A stretch of 59,623 nt of DNA, counting the filler, from Dimargaris cristalligena (Eukaryota): the NCBI GenBank assembly GCA_003614675.1. It is 5 parts of 5 records of this genome, joined end to end, with 100 filler letters (N's around TTAATTAATTAA, not from the genome) between each part and the next. Parts side by side here need not be neighbours in the genome. Positions count along the whole stretch, not along the records: positions 23,923 to 35,764 come from ML003079.1; 4 more parts are not named here. One strand, given 5' to 3'. The position numbers and the translations under genes were made by a program. The number at the start of each line of letters is the position of its first letter. Position 1 is the first letter of the stretch. This document shows, piece after piece, positions 4,680 to 46,428 of this stretch. The notes under the pieces are model-generated. The model did not search any database. It saw nothing but the letters and a program-made list of their open reading frames with translations, and had not been told where the DNA came from.

Positions 4680-6590
4680 TTAGTTGTTAGACATGCTGTT
4701 AAACCGATTAATGAGGGAGCCAACGCGTCCGCTACTGATACTCGGCATAATATCAGGGGTGGGCCGACTACTTGGCACTGTTGGGCGAGAGTTCATTCGG
4801 ATTCTCTCGGCCCGATTTCTTTGGAGTCGAATTAGCCACTCAGGCCTTGGCGCGAATGGCCGTAGGGTGTCCGAGGTGGCGGTGGCGGTGGCGGTGCTGG
4901 TGCCAGTGTCGGTGTCGGTAGTATCAGTACGATTCGTTAGCGGGCTTGAATCTACAAGATCCGACAGTGGTACTCTGCTAGCTTGGTCTGATAACCGTGG
5001 CGTCGAGGCTGGTCTCAGTCGAGCTCGGGCCTCCACCAGATCCACCTCGGGCTCGTGTCCCCCCAGGGCGCTGGCCTTAAGTTTAGAGAAAGGTGACGGG
5101 TCAATCACCGTATAGTAAAGGTCCCTATGCTGGGACCTTTCACTCAATTCGTAGTCGGCGGGCAGGCCCAAGAGGTGCTTCGGAAAGTTGGAGAGGAGCT
5201 CCGGAAAGTTCAGGGGGGTAGATAGTTTAGGGCATCCCATATGGTCGAACCAATGAATGGCCTGCTCAGCGACATTCAAATAGGCGGGTTCTAATGGATA
5301 ATTCATAGATACACAGCATCGAAGCAGCCGGGCGGCTTCGTAGTGTCTCCATTGGAGACACATGAGAAAGAATCCCAAATATTCCATGAAATCAAAATAC
5401 CGTGTCTGGCCCGACCCCGTTACCCCGTCATCTGTTGCGACTTCGTTGACCTGCAGGAATTGCCTTAGGGAATCCACGTCGTTAACGAGAATAGCAGCAC
5501 GGATGCAATCGGTCAAGATCATGACTCCGGTCATCTCAGTGAGATGCCCTTCCTGGTGACCGATATTAAAGCCATCATTTAGTAGGCGCAATCGAGTATT
5601 GGCAATATCCACGGCTAATCCGCCCCGCCCTTCGTAAACCAGAAAGGAGGATAGAAATTGCATACGGATGCCGTCGTCGTCGAAATTGTTGATTTTAATG
5701 ATGGCTTTGTCCATTGGATTGTCTAGGGTGGTCGGCACGAAGTACTGGGAGTCAAAGTCGTAAATCAGCTGTATAATCTTGTCCCCTGGTCCGGTTTGAA
5801 TAAGCTTCCGAATGCCCTCGTAGATTTGGATATCCTTGACACGGCTTACATAAGGTCCAAAAACTGCCACCGACTGGGTTTTACGATTAACGATGGTGTG
5901 GGAGTGGTGAGGGGAAGTTGGTATAAAGTTGCATCAGTAAAATTCTGAAAAGGAGGTGTAAAGCAATTCATAATGCAAGCGGTAGATATCCAAATAATAA
6001 TATCTAATAGTGAAAGTCAATACACCCTCCCTATGGCCAGCTATAGTGGAGGGCCGTGGGGTAGCATCACCCATGGCACATGTGTTTTAAAATTATATTG
6101 CGGAAATGCAGTCACGCATGCTCCGTCCTTGCGAATCGAATGCTTTTCCAAAGTAAAATTACCTCTATTCCCTAACTATACGCAACATAGGTTCTATGAA
6201 ATATTCTACGGTACTTACCCTTTCAATCAGTTGATTTATTTCGACTGTGCGCGCATCGCGGTCGAGGCTTATATCCTCCGAAATCGACAGGAAATGTTTG
6301 ACTGGCTCGAGAATGTCAGGGAGTCCAATTATTTCTAGAGGAAACACATACTGGTCGCCATACTCCGGTAACCCAACCGGGTCCTCTTGGTCAGCGTATA
6401 GTACTCGAAGGGGAAATTGGGATCCCCCCGGCTGCGCCAATGAATCTTTATAGGATGGCACCGGTCTCTCTTCACTGTAGCCCGGGGGTTTTTCCGAGTG
6501 AGTATAGTCGGTATAAGTGACCGGACCCACGTCGGTACCCCTGACCTTGCTTTGGTCCTGGTCCGTTGCTGTATGGGTATCTGCGGGCAT
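4680..6590 (-). CDS. Orphan protein (~520 aa) with N-terminal PY motifs and a low-complexity C-terminus (exons 6590-6219 and 5873-4680; start may lie further upstream)
   Basis: The 141-aa and 396-aa ORFs join in phase 0 via donor GTAAGT (6218) and acceptor CCCAG before TCG GTG (5873). No family recognised. Confidence 0.65.
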
Positions 6591-25308: not shown

Positions 25309-28300
25309 GTTTGAGATTAACGTGTGAAAAGTGGTATGTTAAATAGACACAAAACTATGGTGACCAGTTGAGTATAAATAAATACTAGAAAATACTTTCC
25401 CGTTACAGTTGATTAATATAAACCAAACAAAATGAAGGGGGGATTGGGGAAACCGCCGCAATGAACTGGCTGAAAAGGGTATTAGAGTAAAGGAAGCTAA
25501 ATTTGATATGTGGGTGCACGGCCAGCTTAATTTATAATACCCGCTTGACAAACCGACCGGGCTGCATAACCTTAGCAAAAAATAACATCGGTAAGTATGT
25601 ATAAAATGACATTCACCCTTTGTTTTTATTTATATAGCAGAACTGGTTTAGTTAGGATTAGGCAGGTAATCCTTTGTGTACCCATGTTCCCTCCCTAATG
25701 CTCTTTGGGTTCACCACAGATTAGAGGGTACTACACCGAGCCGATTTAGTTATTCTTCATTTGTGCCGGCGTGGTACATAGGGACACTAGCCACTGCCCT
25801 TGTGAGTTATCGTTTCATAGTTGAATGTGCCCTCTTTATAGTATTGCACCGCCTATGATTAAAGTCACTTCGGGGTCATCAGCCTAGGCCTATTGGGGAG
25901 TGGTTCACTTCTTCACTGTGGCCACCACACGGAGAAGGTTCAGTGTCACTATAGAGTTAATCCCTTCATATATTTTTTTGGACTAGGCTCTTCCCCAGTT
26001 AGACTTAAATGGACCTCCTACCCAGCCTAGTATTGGCGTTGTACCGGAAAATCAAGACCATTGAAATGGACCTCTCTCATGAATATGGTGGGTTGGGTTA
26101 AAAAACTGACATATTCAACCTTTTATTCGGGGGGGAGGTGCTCTTTGCCTTGAAAACGGTCGAAAAGCGCCAAAAGCCCAATCTGGGAAACCAACTAAGG
26201 GGGACTATTCACTAAGTCCATTCAGATGAGGATTATATGAGTGCCGCAGACAGCCCCCCTCCCGTCGATAAACGGGGACAACCGCTACATGGACAAGAGT
26301 GGCCATTTCTAGTGCACTCAGGTATGCCTTGGTTGTTCAATAGTGATAAATATCGATTTCCGCTAATGATTAATTTGACACCCGTGTTTAGCTTGCATGT
26401 ATCCTGTCCCCGTCTATTGTCGTCAAAGTATTTCCATCAAACTCTGCTGAAAAATATGCCCCGACAGGCATAGTAGTATCTCCAGTTTCTAACTATTTAT
26501 GTTAGTTTATTTAGTTGCTCTACACCATTTCATTTTAACCACTTATAATGCCCCCTACCAACTACACTATTCATTAAGACTAACCATCCAGAGGCGCCTA
26601 TTGTCTTCTCACTACTGTCACCCTTTCTATACAGTTATATTGATATTCCTTTAGTATTCCCAATATCTATCCAGAACCCATTCCTGCATGTATTAACATT
26701 CTTGGCGGGCTAAATAGTGGCTATAGGTGCAAAATATACCTGTTCGGCCTATCGACTTCCCGCAATAAACGCTACTATATTTTTCAATTGCACCAACAAG
26801 CTGGCTCAGTTTGTCACCCCCAACCTAGTATATCTCCACTTCACGCAGCCTTAATTACCATTGTATCCGGGTGGCACTATTGCTTATACTCGCAATTACA
26901 CCTAACTATGGCTATGGTACATGTATACACTCTGCTCAACTTTTCAAGGACATCCGAACCGCATCTTCAAATGAGTCCGCTGTAATAGAGTGGTTGGGGA
27001 GTAAGGGGAAAGTGGTATGTGCTCTTGATACCCCGATATATCAAAATGTGGCACCCTTTATTGGGTGATATTGTGCTCCAATCAACATATGGAAGCCAAA
27101 GTAGCCTTTCACTCAAAAGGACAGCAGGTTGATATTTCCAACAACGATGCGCGGATGTCTTGGGTCATACAATTAGGGGTGGGGGTGGTGGTACGACAGT
27201 CTGTTGATACTACTTCCACCCCCATCCACTGGCTCTATGAGTTCCATTTATCCTATGCGGACGACCCATTTCAGTCTTGGGCGGAACCAATTGTCTGGGG
27301 GAAATTGGACTATCTGAAAGGGATGGTATGTCATAGTTAATTGCCAGCCCCCAGGTGTTATTACCATCCCAAGACAAGTGCCTGTACGGGTAGTTAATTA
27401 ATGACGAAGCAGTGGGGCCACTATTCAACTGGGGCCCAATGCCCTCTTTTGTTTTTTTGCCATTTTTAAAACACGTTGCCAGTGTCCATGGGCAGTGTGG
27501 CTTGCCCCAAAATTCACTTTGACAATGTATATGCAGTCTGGCTGAATATTTCACATATCTTTATTTGCGTGGGTAGTATCATCTGGTAGGTAATTAGGTG
27601 ACCTTTCTCCGACACTACTGGTAGTTTGATACTAATCAAATTATATTTTGGTACCCGAAGGGCCCCTCTATGTTTTACGTTAGTTCGATTGGATTTTAGT
27701 ATGCCATGCTAAATATTACAGTTACGAACTAGGGATATACCAGTACCACTTATGTATATAAATAACCCCAAGGAAACGTTTAGCGGGCACTTCTCTATTG
27801 GATTCTTTTGTAGCCCATTATTAATTGCAAAGAATAATACCGCATTTAATTCTGAATTGATTAAAAGAAAAAGGGGGAGGGTATGCAAGTTGACCCCCGA
27901 TCAAAATTAGCGGTTTACAGTCCTCCCCCTTCTTACCGGCCGATCGACGCAAAAGACTCGGAATAAAGGGTATTTCAAAAGCCGCTAATGCCATCCCATC
28001 TCTAGTTTGCTTTGCGAATAACGTATTAGGGACTCCCTTGTACATCAAACTACCCAATTTCCCTCCATTGGGCAGCCTAATAAAGCGCAAATAATCAGAG
28101 GCGTCTGGGGACAAGACTCGCAATCCACATTTGGACGCTTGTGCGACGGCTTTTCATGAAGGAGTATACGCAGTTGAGGTGCCATATTCAGTCAGCCACC
28201 ACGAAAAAATGAATATATAAAGGCAGGTGGTTAAAGTAACAATGCCCCCCACTGGCACCCTCTCCCCAGTAACACGTTCACGGCGGGATATCTCGTGATC

Positions 28301-28501
28301 ATTTGTATATAAATACCAACCTACACCCACTCCCTCATTTCGATCAATTCCACCCATCCTGCCTACTTTCAACTAGACCTCGTTTGAAATTTTTACTACC
28401 CCACTTAAGACTCTGCCCGCCTCCACCCCAATCCCGACGCTCGATCCCTTCTTTCTCGTCCGAATAGGCTCACACCAAGTCACACGATTGTAACTCGCCC
28501 A

Positions 28502-30112
28502 ATGAAGTTCATATTCAATTATGTCACTCTGGTAGGTATGATGTTTGCCCACTGTGCCATTGCTCACCCACATTCTGGCAATGAGGTGCCCTGGCAGGGG
28601 TTGGGTGGACTGATATCGAAAATAAAGTCTCTCTATAATAATTTAGGGTACCCAACTGGTTGCAGTGATACGGTGGTACTTCGCGACACCATGCCCGGCG
28701 GATTCGACAATGAGTGCGACAACGCGCACCTAGCTAATCCCACCGAGAGGCCCGTATGTGCCGACCAAGCCAAGTCGAGAAAGCCTTTCAAGATGTTAGC
28801 TGAGGGCTCGCCGCAGGAAATACTCGGGCTAGTGGGTCAGCAGCTCAGCCCACTTGATTTGGCCCAGGTTGCCCAAGTATCTAAAACGACTCGACTAGTG
28901 GCACTCAGTAACATGGGCTACCGCGACGCGGTCAATGTAAGTCTAAACGTATGGTTTTCATGAGTGTAACCAACCATTGAGGATTGACATGAGACTTATT
29001 AGCCATCAAGGAAGAACATGGGATGTTTCCGTTCCGAAGCATCACCTCCCTGCGCGATCGCTACATGACTGCAAACTCACCGTGCGCATTACCAAGCCAT
29101 TTTTATATCGAATATTACTAAACTACCACTATAATTTGATACGGAAAACCCAGGCCGGGAAATACACCAACCCACAAATTACCGAATTACTCACTCACGG
29201 ATTTAGGGACCACGAAGAAGCCATAATCCGAGGACTTATGCATGTAGAGTTTGCCAACACTATGTTCCAGGAGCTCTATGATAAGGTCTCCTACTACGGG
29301 GTCACACCTCGTGGGAGTCCCTCTCCTCTTAACAATCAATCTGATATTGATGATCGGGGTAAAATTTTGGCTCTACCCGGACTGGTGTCGGGGCTACAAA
29401 AGGTCTACGCCGATTGGTGTTATGTGCGTTTGGACCAACTGTCCCGGCAGCAGCTTTCCCATGTATTTCCACTAGTTGAATTTGCACTCCATAACGATAT
29501 TACGCAACTCTGGAACGTCACCAAAAGCTAGTAGCACTATTCGGTGGTATGGTTACTTCCGAGGGGGAGCTCCTCTCCAATTACTTTAAATTAGATATGG
29601 CTACTTCCCGTATTTCTATAGTATACCATTCCGTCGTATCGGAAATCGTTAGCGCCCTGGCGGCCGATAGGCAATTCGACAAACTGGGCACCTATATCGC
29701 CAAAATTATGCGCTCAAGAAACCGGGCAGCTAACATGGATAATTTTTTGAGACTGATGATCTTGGAATTCAACCTAGATGGTCTAGTGGCCGAGGCGTTG
29801 GGCGCCTTTGATTTTAATGCATCCTATGTAATCAGGTGTGCCCAGCATCTGGGTTTCCACCAGGCTTACCAGAGGCTCATTAACAAATATGGCCAGCCAC
29901 AGTCGGACTTTCGGACTAATCGCAACCTTTGCACGGCCTTGTATGGTGCATATGGCATGATCCACCTAAGCCCCCGTCCCCCCGGTTCGAATGGTGGTGA
30001 CACGCGTCCCTCGGTATCTTTTCGGGCCCTCCGTTCCGCCCTGCCTAAATATCTCGAATTACCCGAATCGGCCTTCGAGGACCAAATTGTGGTTGAAAAG
30101 CTGATCAAATAA
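28502..30112 (+). pseudogene. Signal peptide + F-box-like motif protein with a 1-nt frameshift near 29523-29527 (exons 28502-28936 and 29154-30112)
   Basis: Signal peptide MKFIFNYVTLVGMMFAHCAIA; F-box-like LAEGSPQEILGLVGQQLSPLDLAQVAQVSKTTR; AAT|GTAAGT...CAG|GCC junction in phase 0. Adding one A in ACCAAAAG links to the 29549-30112 frame (..TKKLVALFGGMVTS..). Confidence 0.7.
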
Positions 30113-31913
30113 AGACCCATTTGGTTTTCGTCGGTTCGAACCTTGAAACCAGTTAGCGTGATCCTAGCACCTCCCCTTCCTTAAGAAACCTATTTTAAGA
30201 GCACACTTGTGACTCCGTCTATCGCCGGTTCTTTTTCTCCAATGTGGTCATTGCTAGTTAGGTAGTCCATCCAGTCGGCCACCCTTTTTAGCCCTATGAT
30301 TTCCCAATCCCGATTATTTTCCAAGTGCCCCTCGAGTAATCATGATGGTTAGTGTTCTAGGGCTGCCTAGTTCCTACTTAATGGCCCTTTTTTTAATTTG
30401 AACGCTGGCTTGACCTATTGGTAATTTTATTGAAATATATAGCCTACAGCTGTAATCCTGTAAACAAATAAAATATTATGTCTGGCTGTTGTAAGAACCG
30501 TATAACTTGCGAGTGGGCTATACTTATGGGCCACTTTGATTAAAATGGCTTCTAAGTCGGCATGGCATCGACCTTGACGTAGCCATCATTAAACAGATAC
30601 AGTATACTTTAATTGGCTATGAAATATTTTATTCGAATATACAAGAGCCACTGGGTCCAGATACAAAGTTCGGGATAGTATGCGCCTATCAAGTGATGTC
30701 CTACTTTATGAACTGGGCTAGCGTGGCGGTTCACCACGCTATTACTACTGTGCCCTCCAATATCCCGAGGATTATAATAGGAACCGTACGGGGTTTCAGG
30801 TCAATGACGAAAATATCAGAAACGTAACATGAACGATGGAAAGTGAATAGAGTGGGCAATTTTGATAGAAAAATGTAGCGAAGAGTATGTAGACGAAGAA
30901 AGGCAGTAGCGACAGCAGCGCTAGTGAAACACAGAGTTACTAACATGTTAGCCGATCACCTTTTACGTTCAGTAGGTTCAGGTTCTACCATGTGGGGGCT
31001 GGCATTGCATGGCAAGTGCAACATCCGTCCCTTTTGGATATAAAAGTCTCCTTGTAGCAGCCCCTTGTAAAACAATGAGATGCCCACATGCTTGGTATAC
31101 CTAGCTGGAGTTGACAAGGACTTCAGAAGTTGGTGCCGCTGTCGTTACAAAGGGCTAATTATTTGGCAATGACTCGAAATCCTGGATGGCGTGGCTGAGG
31201 CTATAGCCCCAGCAATGTCGATATTGTTGGAATTGGGCCCAGCTGCAGGGATTCAAGTATCGGAAACACCCACTGTCCAATTTTCGGAACACCATTGGAT
31301 ATCCTTCGAGTATTGTGGTCTTATTATGAGAGGGCCACCAAGGCCATTCACACAATCTATTTGAAGATATATTTGATTAAACCTCTTACCAACCTGGGTT
31401 TATCAAATTACTTTTGCTGTATATCTGGTATCATTTATAAATAAAGAATAGTTCCCTCTGGGGAACATTAGATTCTCTGGAAATAATGTAAATTCGAACC
31501 AGGTTTTGGTACATGTTTGTTGGTTTTCACTCCGTCCCGGTCTATGGTGAGTTTTACTCCCGATTATGTATTTTGAACTAGGTAAGATTCGTTTCATAAT
31601 ATTAGGTAGCATGGTCCAAATTAAAGTATTATACAATATTTTATCATAACTATATACAAAAGCCTACACTACTGCCAAAATTTTTTACGGAACACTCTGT
31701 CTGATTGCCGCTACGTACTCCAGATTCCCAGCCGCAGGCCCTCGAATGAGCCAGATGAATAGACTACTTATTCTACATTATCATTATATCGTAATATTCA
31801 TTAAATTAATCGTTAACCGTCTAAAAAATTCCTTAAAGTCGTGTTATAATTAACCTGGTGAGGGTAGTCTTGAACACATTTCATGTGTATATATTACGAG
31901 ACCTTCGTAAAAA

Positions 31914-33514
31914 TTAGTAAGGGGAGGACTTCTTGTGGCGACAGATGATCCGCCGAGTTCGTAAAGAGGAATAAACAAAGTTTAGAAATCCAAATGCTTC
32001 ACACAAATCCCGACGGAAAATATGAAAACTGAAATAGAAACAGAAATCTGCCGGTATTGGAAGGGTCAAATAATCGGGGTTGAAAACATATCGCAAGCCT
32101 GTGCGGATCAGGGTACTTTCGATTAGCTGGACCATCGTATCCCGCGACAAACCGTATTTCTCCATGGCCTGTACAATGGGGTCGTAGTGAATCAAAGGAT
32201 CATCAAATGAGAGTGAACCAGTCAACTCGGCCGCCGAGCAGGTGTAGGCCACCGGATAGGGCACTTGGATGTCGGGACCAGAGAGGTTCACCCAGGACGA
32301 CCAGTCAAGGTCATGATGGCCATGGTCATGGACACTCAACGGCGAACAGTCCATGTTGTACTTGGCCATGTGTTCGTCGAGAAAGTCCATATATCTAACC
32401 AAATGGAGGCTTTCCGAGTCGGCGGGTATCGAGAGTGTTCCGGATTGGGCAAGAGTCGGCGCCCGGTCTTTTCCCTTGTCGAAAAGGGCCGTCATTAATG
32501 ACTGGCAATGCATCCGCAAGGTGCGGAGTTGGTCGGGGTCGATCGGGTGGTTCCAAAAGTCGGTCAAGTTCCCCATATCGAGTGACTTTACCATGGCTAC
32601 TTTCATTGTTGTCGTACCGTCGGGCTGTTGGATGATTTGGTATGGTAAGCCAGAGCTGCGGCCACGGAGTCGATCGGTAAAGTGTGCGTGGCCACCTGCC
32701 TCGATGGAGGTACAGTGGTCCAGTTTGTTCGTGGAGATTGGCGTGAGTTCCGGCGAAGAACTGCCTGAGGATACGCTAGTGGGTGGTGTCACAATACCCT
32801 GCAGAGCCTTCCGGAGCTCAGCCACGGTCATGCGGGCGGGTGGGGAACTGGAGATGATAGTGGGTCGGGTTACAGGCGATCCAGCCCGATCTATTGGTCC
32901 TCGGGCCGGATCCATGCTGGCGGGCAAGGTTATGATCTTGTCACACATCCCAATTACGGCTTCCCCGACTTGTCGACCATTTTGAGTTTGGTCCATGACC
33001 GCCCCAGCGGGCGAGTTCTTGGTAGTCGGTTGGCTGCGAGGACGAATAACGGCACCGTGCGCTGCCTTTTGGGGGCCTACTTTGGCCAAGGGTACGGACC
33101 GGGTGCCAGTGAGTTTGGGAGCCGAGACCTCGGGATTCAGCTTCGGCTTCGGTGCGTTGGCTTGTGATTTTTCGATGATACGGGAGTGGCGTTTTTCAAG
33201 ACAATTGGCCTGACTACGGGTCGCCGGCTTGCTGAGAATGGCAACTGCTGCCCCACGCTTTCCTGGCTGGCTCTGACCGGCGGTAGCTTGAGCAGGCTAA
33301 AATTGGGATCGAGTTTAAAACAGACAATTGCAACAATTTAATTAGTCAATAATAAATGAATAGTCGAATGTGAAGGTTAGCAGAATATAGCCAAGAATAA
33401 TATTGGTTGCAGGCTGTCTACAATTACCTTTGCAGCAATCGGTTTGGACGAGGCGGCCCGCCGAGCACGGGAAGAAGCGGTGGAGTTCATGTAGTTTGGG
33501 ATGCGGGTCGACAT
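31914..33514 (-). CDS. Hypothetical protein (~490 aa) with a basic Ser/Pro-rich N-terminus; exons 33514-33428 and 33296-31914
   Basis: MSTRIPNYMNSTASSRARRAASSKPIAAK|PAQATAG... splices in phase 0 (GTAATT...TTTAG) into the 391-aa ORF frame. Confidence 0.75.
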
Positions 33515-43688: not shown

Positions 43689-45915
43689 ATTTGTTATCTA
43701 AAGCGGGTATTTATTAGTAGGCCTATCCATTTTCACCGCAGAACTAAGGGCAGTCACATGTCAGACCAGCATCCCCTCTAAAAGTCCACCCTATGGTAAC
43801 TCCCCACTAAAGGTATGCTATGTGTATGGGAAACTATGTAGCCCTGGGGGTTTTTGATCGAGATCCTATTATTATGTTCGCTGTGGATGACAAATTATAA
43901 CCAAAAGGTTGTCTGCCTTGGATTTACTATAAATAAAACTCTACTTCACCTGTATGGAACACTAGGTGGGATATTCATTTTTTCAACCAGAGGAGTATTT
44001 GCCTCATCAAACGGATTTTCCATTCATTCGATAGCCTGCTTGAACCCATTGCCCTAATTTACTCCGTCATATACCAGTGATGCTATTTGGTGTATTTATA
44101 TAATATGCTATTTTCGGGTTGGACTCGATATAATATGGCTGTATTAACATTTATTAAATACTCAAGTATAAAATCAGTATTACAAGCATAATAATAACCA
44201 AGGGTTTATTTAATCAAAACGAGGTCAAGGAATATTCTCCTGAGGAGGTCGAGGTCCGTTGACTTTAATCGAGGTCCAGGGAATAATAATACCATGGGTA
44301 TAAACTACGTACCACCGGCTGTATCTTAGAGACCCGGCATCGGCGACAGGCTCGAGGGCCAGGATTGGGTGATGTTAGAGGCGCCGGGAATGATTTCATA
44401 ACATATTTTGTGGTTGAATGCCTCTCCAATAAATTGAACCCGGAGTACCCTCAGCGAGACAGGAACTAGCAACCCCACATTAAGACGCCAAGCCCAATTA
44501 TTCGAACTGATCGATGCGAGACCCTATCGAGTGGAAGTATTATGCCAAGACATAGACCTCATTTGTACTTCCAGCTGTAAGCGCAGCTAGTTGCTGGTCC
44601 CCTTTAGCTCTGGTGTTGTTGTTAGTCTAGGACCGTTGTTTGAGGGCCGGACTAGCCCGTAATGTACAATCGTGTAGCCATTGCCCTAGTTGAGCAACAC
44701 AGGTGACTCCCGTACAATAGAGCCGCTCCAACACCTTAACCATGCTACTCTAGTTAATGAGCTTTATTCGGCGACTTGGCATGAATGCCAAGGCCGTACA
44801 AGCCACCACTAGTGACCAAGCTTCCTCTTATTCGCGGTATTTTCCACAGAAAGTTCCAATATTAGGGTTGGCCATAGTAAATAAGGGTTAGTTACGAAGA
44901 AACCTATTGGTGCCTTCGGGGACAGCTACGAGAAGAAAAAAATGGAAGGGGCGTGAGGGCGGCGTACAACGAGTAAATCAGAACGATTTGGTGCTAGGTC
45001 AAGTTCTCCCCTTTTCCTTTGGCCCGTATTGGGTGCTAGGGCTGTACAGAGTAACAGAAATGTAAATCCCGCTATGAGGAGCCTTAACCCAGCCCTTTCT
45101 TGCCTTCCAAAAAATTGGCCAGTCGAATTATTCCCCCTAACCAGGCCAGCCCTTTAGCTAACCCTCACGGTTTCCTTTTACCCAACAGCGTGCTATACCA
45201 ATGTATTGCTGGGCAAAGGGCTGTGCATGTGAATCATTCAAATTTCATATATATATATATATATATGAAAATTCTTAATAAGAGCCATACTCGAGCAATG
45301 TCAGTTGGCCCTGTTAAACAACTCATCAATAATAGAGTGTTCGAATAGCCAAGACTCCGCTAACCCCTCCACTAATAGTCTTCAACACGCGGATAATATG
45401 GCGCGACGCTGCTGACCTCGAGGTGGTAGCACCACGACGCAATTGTTGGATACAAACGCTACCAGATTGGTGATACACCGAGTTTGGATGGCTGGTTCGC
45501 AATGGGTCCACCAATAGGTCAAGCAACAGCTTTGATCTGAAGATGGCCCTTTTATTGGCGGCTTGTTTGAGTCCTTCTAGGTGGGTGCCAACTTGACAAT
45601 AAGAAGGGCCTCCTTTTCAAGGGTCGTAACTGAGGGCCCAGCACTGAATTTTTGCCAACATCCCAAACTTACTACTCAGTATATATACCCAAAGACCCGG
45701 TTCCTCAATTTCAACAAATCATTCAATAACCCATTCCGCTATTACATCGCACTTCTCACTACTTTATCGACCCCAATTCACGCCTATCACTTTTCTCTAC
45801 ACCCGCATATATAATTCAGCTTTTGAACCGCTGCACTCAACCTTCCATTTTTTTTTGTATAACTTCCCTTCCATACCATCCCACGAAAGCATCCACTCCG
45901 ATATCCCCTTCCAAC

Positions 45916-46428
45916 ATGAAGTGCATCATTGCCGCCGCTCTTTTCACTGCCGCTATTGTCATGGCCGAGAATGACTTTAAGATGGTGAAGCCCGGTTCCC
46001 GCGGCTTCAACGACGATTCCGACAAGGTGGGTCCTTGCGGTGGTTTCAATGACGAAATGGACCCCATTAAAATTAAGGCCAAGCAGGAGTTCAAGTTCGG
46101 TGTGCCCAAGTCCAAGGGTTTCGTTGGCCTGTTCTACTTGTCCGAGGGAAACGACGTCAAGGAGTGGAAGCCTCTGCTCAACATTACCTCCGACGGTGGT
46201 CATGACGAGGTTGAGGGAGAAGTCGAATTCAAAGACATCGCCAAGACGAATACCAAAGGTACCGTGGCCGCTCACTGGTACTATGAAGAAGGGTCTGACA
46301 ATAATGCCGTCTACTACCAGTGCGTTGATGTGGCCCATGGCGACGATCTCAAGAACTCTGCCACCATAGTCCAGGCTACGTTCATGACTCTGGCCGTGAC
46401 TACCGTGACCCTCCTCGCCCGCCTGTAA
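45916..46428 (+). CDS. Secreted, probably GPI-anchored BIM1/X325 (LPMO-like) family protein lacking the N-terminal His
   Basis: Signal peptide MKCIIAAALFTAAIVMA; family motifs F...P.SRGF.DD....PCGG and YYQCVDV; hydrophobic C-terminal tail after KNSA. Confidence 0.75.
   Translation: MKCIIAAALFTAAIVMAENDFKMVKPGSRGFNDDSDKVGPCGGFNDEMDPIKIKAKQEFKFGVPKSKGFVGLFYLSEGNDVKEWKPLLNITSDGGHDEVEGEVEFKDIAKTNTKGTVAAHWYYEEGSDNNAVYYQCVDVAHGDDLKNSATIVQATFMTLAVTTVTLLARL

Follow-up and report, generated by a model that had tools for sequence, protein, structure and literature searches.

Dimargaris cristalligena is a haustorial mycoparasite. The stretch of its genome analysed here (the window; 59,623 nucleotides, filler included, joined from five parts of five records of assembly GCA_003614675.1) carries, on the + strand of the part taken from ML003079.1, a gene predicted to combine a secretory signal peptide with a divergent F-box and a helical C-terminal domain. 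Its two exons occupy positions 28502-28936 and 29154 onward, with the ATG at 28502 opening 145 codons. The C-terminal end of exon 1 reads LAEGSPQEILGLVGQQLSPLDLAQVAQVSKTTRLVALSNMGYRDAVN, and exon 2 opens with AGKYTNPQ at 29154. A signal-peptide-like start, a Cys-containing spacer and an F-box-like motif followed by one intron had been described in an earlier note on this DNA, and all are present in the sequence at the positions listed in Table 1. The intron is supported by an identical junction (DAVN/TGKY) in the annotated NCBI protein P0004 (H4R33_003936, 380 amino acids, D. cristalligena), to which the C-terminal 194 amino acids of the window gene are 100 % identical, and paralog alignments likewise run across this junction. 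A small additional exon within the intron, based on a frame-1 open reading frame (ORF) at 28993-29121, was considered and rejected, as no phase-compatible splice sites could be found by eye. In exon 2, frame 0 ends with NVTKS and a TAG stop; the frame is broken at 29521-29531, and the remainder of the gene continues in another frame to a TAA stop.

Contigs of four public sequencing runs, X1-X3 (one study, two samples) and X5 (a second study), were compared with the window over 28000-30400. Those of X1-X3 match the window letter for letter at a depth of 16-50; these runs are possibly the source of the assembly and therefore do not provide independent support. The X5 contig (depth 206) carries 40 more bases at the break, consisting of 34 letters and a second CCAAAA, and its frame is intact. 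Read in frame by eye, the extra letters give the 13 residues KLSRLNIHEGSIQ, as in P0004 at the same place, and all seven other sequences covering the break site in alignment A1 have residues there. Because P0004 and these seven sequences are continuous at this point, the longer form is, by sequence comparison, the ancestral one, with a 40-base deletion between short direct repeats (CCAAAA) in the window. The earlier note had attributed the break to a single missing A, either through decay or through an error in sequencing a homopolymer. The break itself is real and one added A does restore the frame arithmetically, but the true difference is 40 bases, which, together with the agreement of the contigs of three runs, rules out both the loss of a single A and a homopolymer miscall. 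As a consequence of the deletion, the window copy either encodes a truncated product, predicted to comprise the signal, spacer, F-box-like motif and first 125 amino acids of the C-domain (270 amino acids in total), or is a pseudogene. It is probably a recently inactivated allele.

The two sequence versions also differ upstream of the deletion. Twenty-four single-base differences between X5 and the window were counted, all between 28203 and 29154, so that divergence amounts to approximately 2 % in 28000-29154 (24 bases and a 2-base indel), and there is none in 29155-30400 except for the 40-base indel. Intron 1 contains six of these differences as well as two bases inserted after 28988, and these also fall across the interval considered above for a small exon. 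Such an abrupt change in divergence points to recombination or conversion with its boundary where exon 2 begins, and to a very recent deletion.

Table 1. Coordinates of the features of the F-box-like gene in the window
Feature	Position	Strand	Remarks
Candidate TATA-like box, TATATAAATA	28306-28315	+	about 190 bases 5' of the ATG; read from the sequence
Signal-peptide-like N-terminus, codons 1-21	28502-28564	+	MK, hydrophobic core, AIA/HP site
Spacer, codons 22-97 (76 amino acids)	28565-28792	+	Cys54, Cys72, Cys86
F-box-like motif, codons 98-145	28793-28936	+	Pfam-aligned core at codons 104-136, 28811-28909
Intron 1, 217 bases, phase 0	28937-29153	+	GTAAGT...CCCAG, GT..AG ends
Exon 2 as readable in the window	29154-29531	+	125 C-domain codons, then premature TAG at 29529-29531
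Deletion junction, single CCAAAA copy	29521-29526	+	X5 has 34 more letters and a second CCAAAA
Remaining C-domain frame, 194 codons and TAA (30110-30112)	29528-30112	+	out of frame with the upstream part

The gene is already catalogued. The public JGI model of the window gene, P0005 (BJ085DRAFT_33201), is 99 % identical to P0004 and the top match in a search with it, and carries the UniProt name "F-box domain-containing protein". The two public models differ in their treatment of the N-terminus and of the frame break. P0004 starts at Met98, just ahead of the F-box, makes use of the 28937-29153 intron and then runs uninterrupted to its end; Met98 is not kept across the paralogs. The P0005 model keeps the first eleven codons, followed by an in-frame 111-base GT..AG "intron" (28536-28646) which spans the hydrophobic core of the signal, and steps across the frame break by means of a 263-base intron (29359-29621). 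Both extra introns are regarded as gene-caller artefacts because they cut out sequence kept as protein in the paralogs; for 28536-28646, all paralog models hold the matching sequence as coding. If real, the 28536-28646 intron would yield an isoform without the export signal.

The predicted protein starts with MKFIFNYVTLVGMMFAHCAIA/HPH, with Lys at position 2, a hydrophobic core, a small-x-small site at 21/22 and Pro at +2. Starts of like design are found in nine paralogs, for example MKSVGYSFTLVGMMVAHCAVA/YP and MKSICFSTSLVGMLLAHYAMA/FP, giving ten signal-bearing sequences with the window gene included. All ten begin M(AM)K/R, with K or R among the first four residues, and continue with a hydrophobic core whose maximum 12-residue Kyte-Doolittle mean is 1.8-2.3, as calculated with a hydropathy script. 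The cleavage site takes the form A-x-A/x-P at 21/22 in six of the sequences and that of another small-x-small site in the other four. Inspection of the window gene and its family hence reveals a basic n-region, a hydrophobic h-region and a small-x-small cleavage site. At approximately 14-17 residues the core is short; A-x-A closes it, a Pro-rich stretch comes next, and no basic residues follow the core. Judged by the two established rules for the orientation and cleavage of signals, positive-inside and -3/-1, the charge placement and the A-x-A site predict cleavage with the C-terminus outside the cytosol. A like design is seen at the N-termini of PDI-like and BIM1-like ORFs in the window, which represent families we take to be classically secretory.

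Pairwise identity among the ten sequences averages 0.61 over the signal (residues 1-21); the averages for the spacer and the F-box are 0.24 and 0.25, which makes the signal the best conserved N-terminal part of the family. Four of the five differences between X5 and the window in codons 1-97 are synonymous third-position changes (22 % expected; binomial P 0.009), 7/9 of the differences over the whole of exon 1 are synonymous (P 0.0008), and in the other two frames the same exon-1 changes would mostly be replacements or stops. The sole replacement in codons 1-97, A21T, is located at the predicted -1 position of the signal, with the spacer containing four synonymous and zero non-synonymous differences. 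On the basis of the family conservation and this synonymous pattern, the N-terminal extension is, as judged from the sequence, genuine coding sequence, and the recurrence of the putative signal in the paralogs and the synonymous bias are features beyond chance. The term signal peptide is used here for a set of sequence features with a predicted function. The protein is not rich in cysteine once the signal is removed, and the cysteines that it has are not conserved across the family. The spacer of the window gene includes a motif, GYPTG...TMPGG (codons 49-67; 28646-28702). The form GYPxG..DP..L..TM.GG is common to the window gene, P0006, P0007, P0020 and P0021, and is looser in P0011, the spacer being otherwise poorly conserved. 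A role in processing, export or uptake is possible for this motif, and together with the unusually conserved signal it might act as an address for export or uptake.

An exhaustive search with P0004 over 1.84 billion representatives retrieved thirteen proteins at E ≤ 0.001, to which a profile search added two, giving sixteen proteins with P0004 itself. All sixteen (16/16) belong to D. cristalligena. By sequence, the family therefore appears to be private to this species, with roughly 12-14 loci after merging of the sixteen proteins. It is lineage-restricted and diversified, the paralogs being 25-55 % identical to P0004, and the window gene is intact in one sequence version and carries the deletion in the other. 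The signal is present in the ten sequences described above, with several of the others being contig-end fragments or shorter models. The F-box is degenerate or largely missing in four of these ten sequences. No second copy of the gene was found within the window with tblastn. In all four runs a second contig matches pieces of the gene (28835-28895, 29942-29970 and 30088-30114), and its upstream letters read ALPYELLEMV, which corresponds to paralog P0020. This paralog (P0020/P0009), which is located outside the window, has the most canonical motif start, ALPYELLEMV. One of its annotations is truncated with an odd end (330 amino acids) and the other is partial at a contig end; it may be another damaged or mis-modelled copy.

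Skp1 binding is the defining property of an F-box. The motif encoded at the end of exon 1 contains an LPxE(I/L)L core and spaced hydrophobic residues over approximately 40-48 amino acids. In an alignment of the F-box segments of six members (A3), all six keep the P, E and L of the LPxE...L core, and the residue before the core P is Leu in four and Ser in two, including the window copy. The aromatic residue usual after (S/C)K is replaced by Thr in the window copy. Comparison with the Pfam hidden Markov models sustains the earlier F-box assignment in part: the window exon-1 protein matches PF12937 (E 0.0031) and PF00646 (E 0.064), but with 17.7 bits against PF12937 it stays short of the curated threshold (24.3 bits). 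P0021, the highest-scoring paralog, reaches 23.6 bits with PF12937 (E 4.5e-5), again a significant E-value at a score below the threshold. Among the isolated segments of the six members, PF12937 matches 5/6 (best E 1.1e-6), PF00646 4/6 and PF15966 3/6, with the matches falling at the same aligned position in five of the six; the isolated 52-amino acid segment of the window gene reaches 20.5 bits (E 4e-4) with PF12937. Searched against the PDB, a profile of the F-box segments has nine matches at E ≤ 10, and six of them are F-box proteins aligned on their F-box. These six are FBXW7 (four sequences, ranked first with a best E of 0.0027), FBXW8 (E 0.0085) and FBXL5 (E 1.5), and the HMMER alignments to FBXW7 and FBXW8 span the LPxE core. 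The UniProt label "F-box domain-containing protein" is attached to six family clusters. In the ESM Atlas the first feature match is an unnamed-family cluster labelled F-box (0.89, below the bar of 0.9) and the structure rows all have a template modelling score below 0.3, so that both serve as leads only. In the subfamily which includes the window gene, the motif is very probably a divergent F-box; its identity as an F-box is probable but unproven.

An AlphaFold2 model of P0004, built with seventeen family sequences, has a predicted local distance difference test (pLDDT) score of 76 and a predicted template modelling score of 0.76. The first 48 residues of this whole-protein model give a modest superposition on Skp1-bound F-boxes. 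A structure search independent of Foldseek listed fifty matches, with the warning of the tool that a Z below 8 may reflect a common helical arrangement. Six F-box chains occur among the matches listed, all on model residues 1-51 (Z 4.1-5.1; root-mean-square deviation 2.3-4.1 Å). These comprise AnkB-Skp1 (5k35_A; Z 5.1, 2.3 Å, 47 amino acids, 17 % identity), Fbw7-Skp1 (5ibk_E; Z 5.0, 44/48 amino acids, 30 % identity) and Skp2 (1fs1_C; Z 4.3, 41/41 amino acids), as well as FBXL5, FBXL2 and FBXO3. AnkB again ranks first in a second structure comparison.

The C-domain of approximately 330 amino acids is mostly helical with short strands in the AlphaFold2 model, and has no Pfam family, in agreement with its earlier description as novel helical sequence. 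Its best-modelled part, P0004 residues 221-310, has a pLDDT of 88-95. Conserved blocks include Y.DWCYVRLDQL, FPLVEFAL, LEFNL, RCAQ.LGF..AY and a tail LPESAFEDQ.VVEKLIK. A PDB sequence search with the whole-family profile (A2) returned no matches at E ≤ 10. Among the structural matches listed, the best for the C-domain is the ankyrin domain of OspC3 (Z 5.5 over 61 residues), with helical repeats at Z ~5. No known fold is recognised for the C-domain within the whole-protein model, and a new fold is not claimed.

On this reading, members of the family would carry a Sec signal peptide that is cleaved off, then a spacer of variable sequence, an F-box and finally a helical domain of approximately 330 amino acids. 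We know of no partner of F-boxes outside the cytosol or nucleus. Given a conserved export signal joined to a domain with such partners only, export followed by action in the cytoplasm of a host cell best explains the family. This architecture, in a species-restricted family of a haustorial mycoparasite, makes an effector directed at the Skp1-cullin-F-box (SCF) ligase of the host a reasonable proposal, the host being another fungus. The Dimargaritales are described as biotrophic parasites of Mucoromycota and some Ascomycota that form an appressorium and a haustorium (PMC9866270). Intact members would be exported by the parasite, probably at the haustorium, and would reach the cytoplasm of the host fungus, where the F-box would dock on the conserved Skp1 of the host and the helical domain would select a protein of the host to be ubiquitinated by the SCF ligase. 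Of this model, secretion, uptake and binding to Skp1, together with any effect on the host, are steps that we infer. The mode of action would match that of the F-box effectors of bacteria and of the Hessian fly. That the family consists of effectors hijacking the host SCF ligase, as the earlier note had proposed, is partly supported and is given a probability of about 0.45. The architecture and the restriction of the family to one species favour this proposal, but the Pfam cut-off is not reached and the modest fold match is not reproduced by the isolated segment. The more specific form of the proposal, in which Sec-secreted F-box proteins are delivered from haustoria into host hyphae, join the highly conserved Skp1-Cul1 ligase there and mark host proteins for destruction through a previously unseen helical substrate-binding domain, is more tentative still.

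Several observations weigh against a host-directed F-box effector. Scanned whole, all fifteen proteins or pieces of the family stay below the Pfam cut-off; the six with F-box-like matches score 12.0-23.6 bits, and P0007 and P0017, which are named F-box proteins in UniProt, have no Pfam match at E < 1. The second match of the F-box profile in the PDB is CHR35 (E 0.0062), which is not an F-box protein, and two weak matches are to talin. Conservation of the motif falls short of that of the signal and of the C-domain, and in the four degenerate cases (P0011, P0012, P0014 and P0015) only a short PxE(I)L remnant is left or the motif is largely missing. In the whole-protein model the F-box region has a pLDDT of only 59-69, Z values of ~5 lie within the range common for helical models, and Foldseek finds no match to the whole model at E ≤ 0.001. 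A model of the isolated 52-amino acid segment (pLDDT 82.6) forms one long helix where an F-box has two, with no F-box chains among its fifty matches listed and none of any kind from Foldseek. The NCBI model of the intact allele begins at Met98 and so lacks the signal, the window copy is broken, and the neighbours in the window are housekeeping genes (Xrn1, prenyltransferase, PDI, FAS-beta, Sin3 and a kinase) rather than an effector cluster.

Part of this evidence is shared by an alternative in which the family is secreted or cell-surface located and the "F-box" is a helical piece of a novel extracellular or haustorial-interface protein that never meets Skp1. The family-defining unit would then be the signal together with the helical C-domain, both of which are kept in every full-length member. 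The degenerate or missing motif in 4/10 sequences, the sub-threshold Pfam scores of all whole proteins, the isolated-segment model without an F-box fold and the lack of a known F-box partner beyond the cytosol or nucleus are all consistent with this explanation. Against these stand the F-box matches at one aligned position in five of six segments (best E 1.1e-6), the invariant P/E/L core, the retrieval of FBXW7, FBXW8 and FBXL5 from the PDB by the family profile and that of six Skp1-bound F-box chains, among the fifty matches listed, by the whole model, while the few, unconserved cysteines of the mature protein do not suggest a stabilised extracellular protein. This alternative is considered less likely than the effector proposal, and is the likeliest of the alternatives weighed here.

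Ranked below it, and improbable, is the explanation that the proteins are endogenous SCF substrate receptors of the parasite, translated from an internal Met or held by an N-terminal organelle-membrane anchor with the F-box facing the cytosol of the parasite itself. The usual site of action of F-box proteins is the cytosol of the cell that makes them, and lineage-specific expansions of F-box genes are common in eukaryotes; the start at Met98 in NCBI's model for the intact allele and the housekeeping genes as genomic neighbours also accord with such a role. However, Met98 is unconserved in the paralogs, the N-terminal extension is conserved in ten sequences and evolves as coding sequence, and the Lys/Arg ahead of a short core, with A-x-A and Pro-rich sequence after it, predicts cleavage with the C-terminus outside the cytosol rather than an anchor. 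It is very improbable that the frame break is bridged in the messenger RNA and the window copy thereby remains near full-length, for although the intervals 29359-29621 (used in P0005, a public model) and 29463-29527 both have GT..AG ends and restore the frame, their removal would take out blocks conserved as protein in the paralogs (YADWCYVRLDQL...FPLVEFAL in the case of the JGI intron), the intact allele and paralogs read straight across the region, and gene callers typically place introns of this kind across frameshifts.

Mimicry of a host ligase by means of F-box proteins is established for bacteria and one insect, and the F-box protein VirF of Agrobacterium is injected into host cells. Ralstonia RipG/GALA is similarly described as an F-box protein that is injected into host cells and binds host SKP1-like proteins (PMC4617103). 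Both RipG/GALA and VirF are bacterial, with type III or type IV delivery and leucine-rich repeats (LRRs) or another target-binding domain, and share no sequence similarity with the Dimargaris family beyond the F-box motif. Legionella pneumophila AnkB, with an F-box and ankyrin repeats (PDB 5K35, with human Skp1), is the best F-box structural match of the first 48 residues of the model, and is also a pathogen protein with an N-terminal F-box which acts in the host (PMC2790608). It differs in being a bacterial Dot/Icm effector that relies on type IV secretion instead of a Sec signal, and in its C-terminal ankyrin repeats, and the Z value of the match is low in absolute terms. The endogenous F-box proteins FBXW7/Cdc4, FBXW8, FBXL5 and Skp2 share the LPxE(I/L)L...L...DL...V(S)K pattern, FBXW7 and FBXW8 being the best sequence matches of the F-box profile of the family in the PDB, but lack a signal peptide, and their substrate domains are of the WD40 or LRR type.

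A likeness in overall design is provided by the SSGP-71 proteins of the Hessian fly (Mayetiola destructor). These combine an F-box with LRRs and interact with wheat Skp1-like proteins, with one member lacking the F-box (PMC7330099, PMC4617103). Both families belong to eukaryotic parasites and have a secretion signal followed by an F-box and a target-binding domain, all three being predicted in Dimargaris, and both are large, diversified and lineage-specific with some members lacking the F-box. In contrast to the LRRs of SSGP-71, the Dimargaris family has a helical domain without a Pfam family or clear PDB match. SSGP-71 concerns an insect on a plant and Dimargaris a fungus on fungi, and Skp1 binding, which is shown for SSGP-71, is a prediction for the Dimargaris family.

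To our knowledge, effectors of biotrophic mycoparasites are almost unknown. In the literature searched, no paper naming both Dimargaris cristalligena and "F-box" was found, and among those naming the species and "effector" none is, by title or abstract, about such effectors. Neither the 2018 genome paper nor the zygomycete secretome paper of 2022 nor a 2026 mycoparasite-effector paper uses the term "F-box" in its main text. A 2013 study reports Ascomycota proteins that lack a secretion signal and have an LPxE motif remotely similar to F-boxes (PMC3914424). While the gene and an automatic F-box label were already public, the combination of a conserved predicted signal peptide with the F-box label, the family and the strain-specific deletion are new relative to the literature searched. 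A Sec-secreted fungal F-box family would extend host-ligase mimicry to fungus-fungus parasitism, and, if the effector proposal is true, this would be the first fungal F-box effector family and the first hijacking of SCF in fungus-on-fungus parasitism, with the strain difference amounting to an effector knock-out polymorphism. As Skp1 is highly conserved, it offers a directly testable handle on the effector proposal. The family also supplies a novel helical domain and a natural pair of intact and broken alleles for the comparison of strains.

Elsewhere in the window, no Skp1 gene was found. Two ORFs, at 31914-33296 (- strand; 460 amino acids) and 4680-5933 (- strand; 417 amino acids), have no Pfam family at E ≤ 0.001, the former being the nearest long ORF (at least 130 amino acids) downstream of the F-box-like gene. 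The BIM1-like copper-acquisition-factor ORF at 45912-46428 (+ strand) matches PF20238 (E 5e-7) and has a signal-like start, MKCIIAAALFTAAIVMA, as well as a hydrophobic C-terminal tail suggestive of a glycosylphosphatidylinositol anchor.

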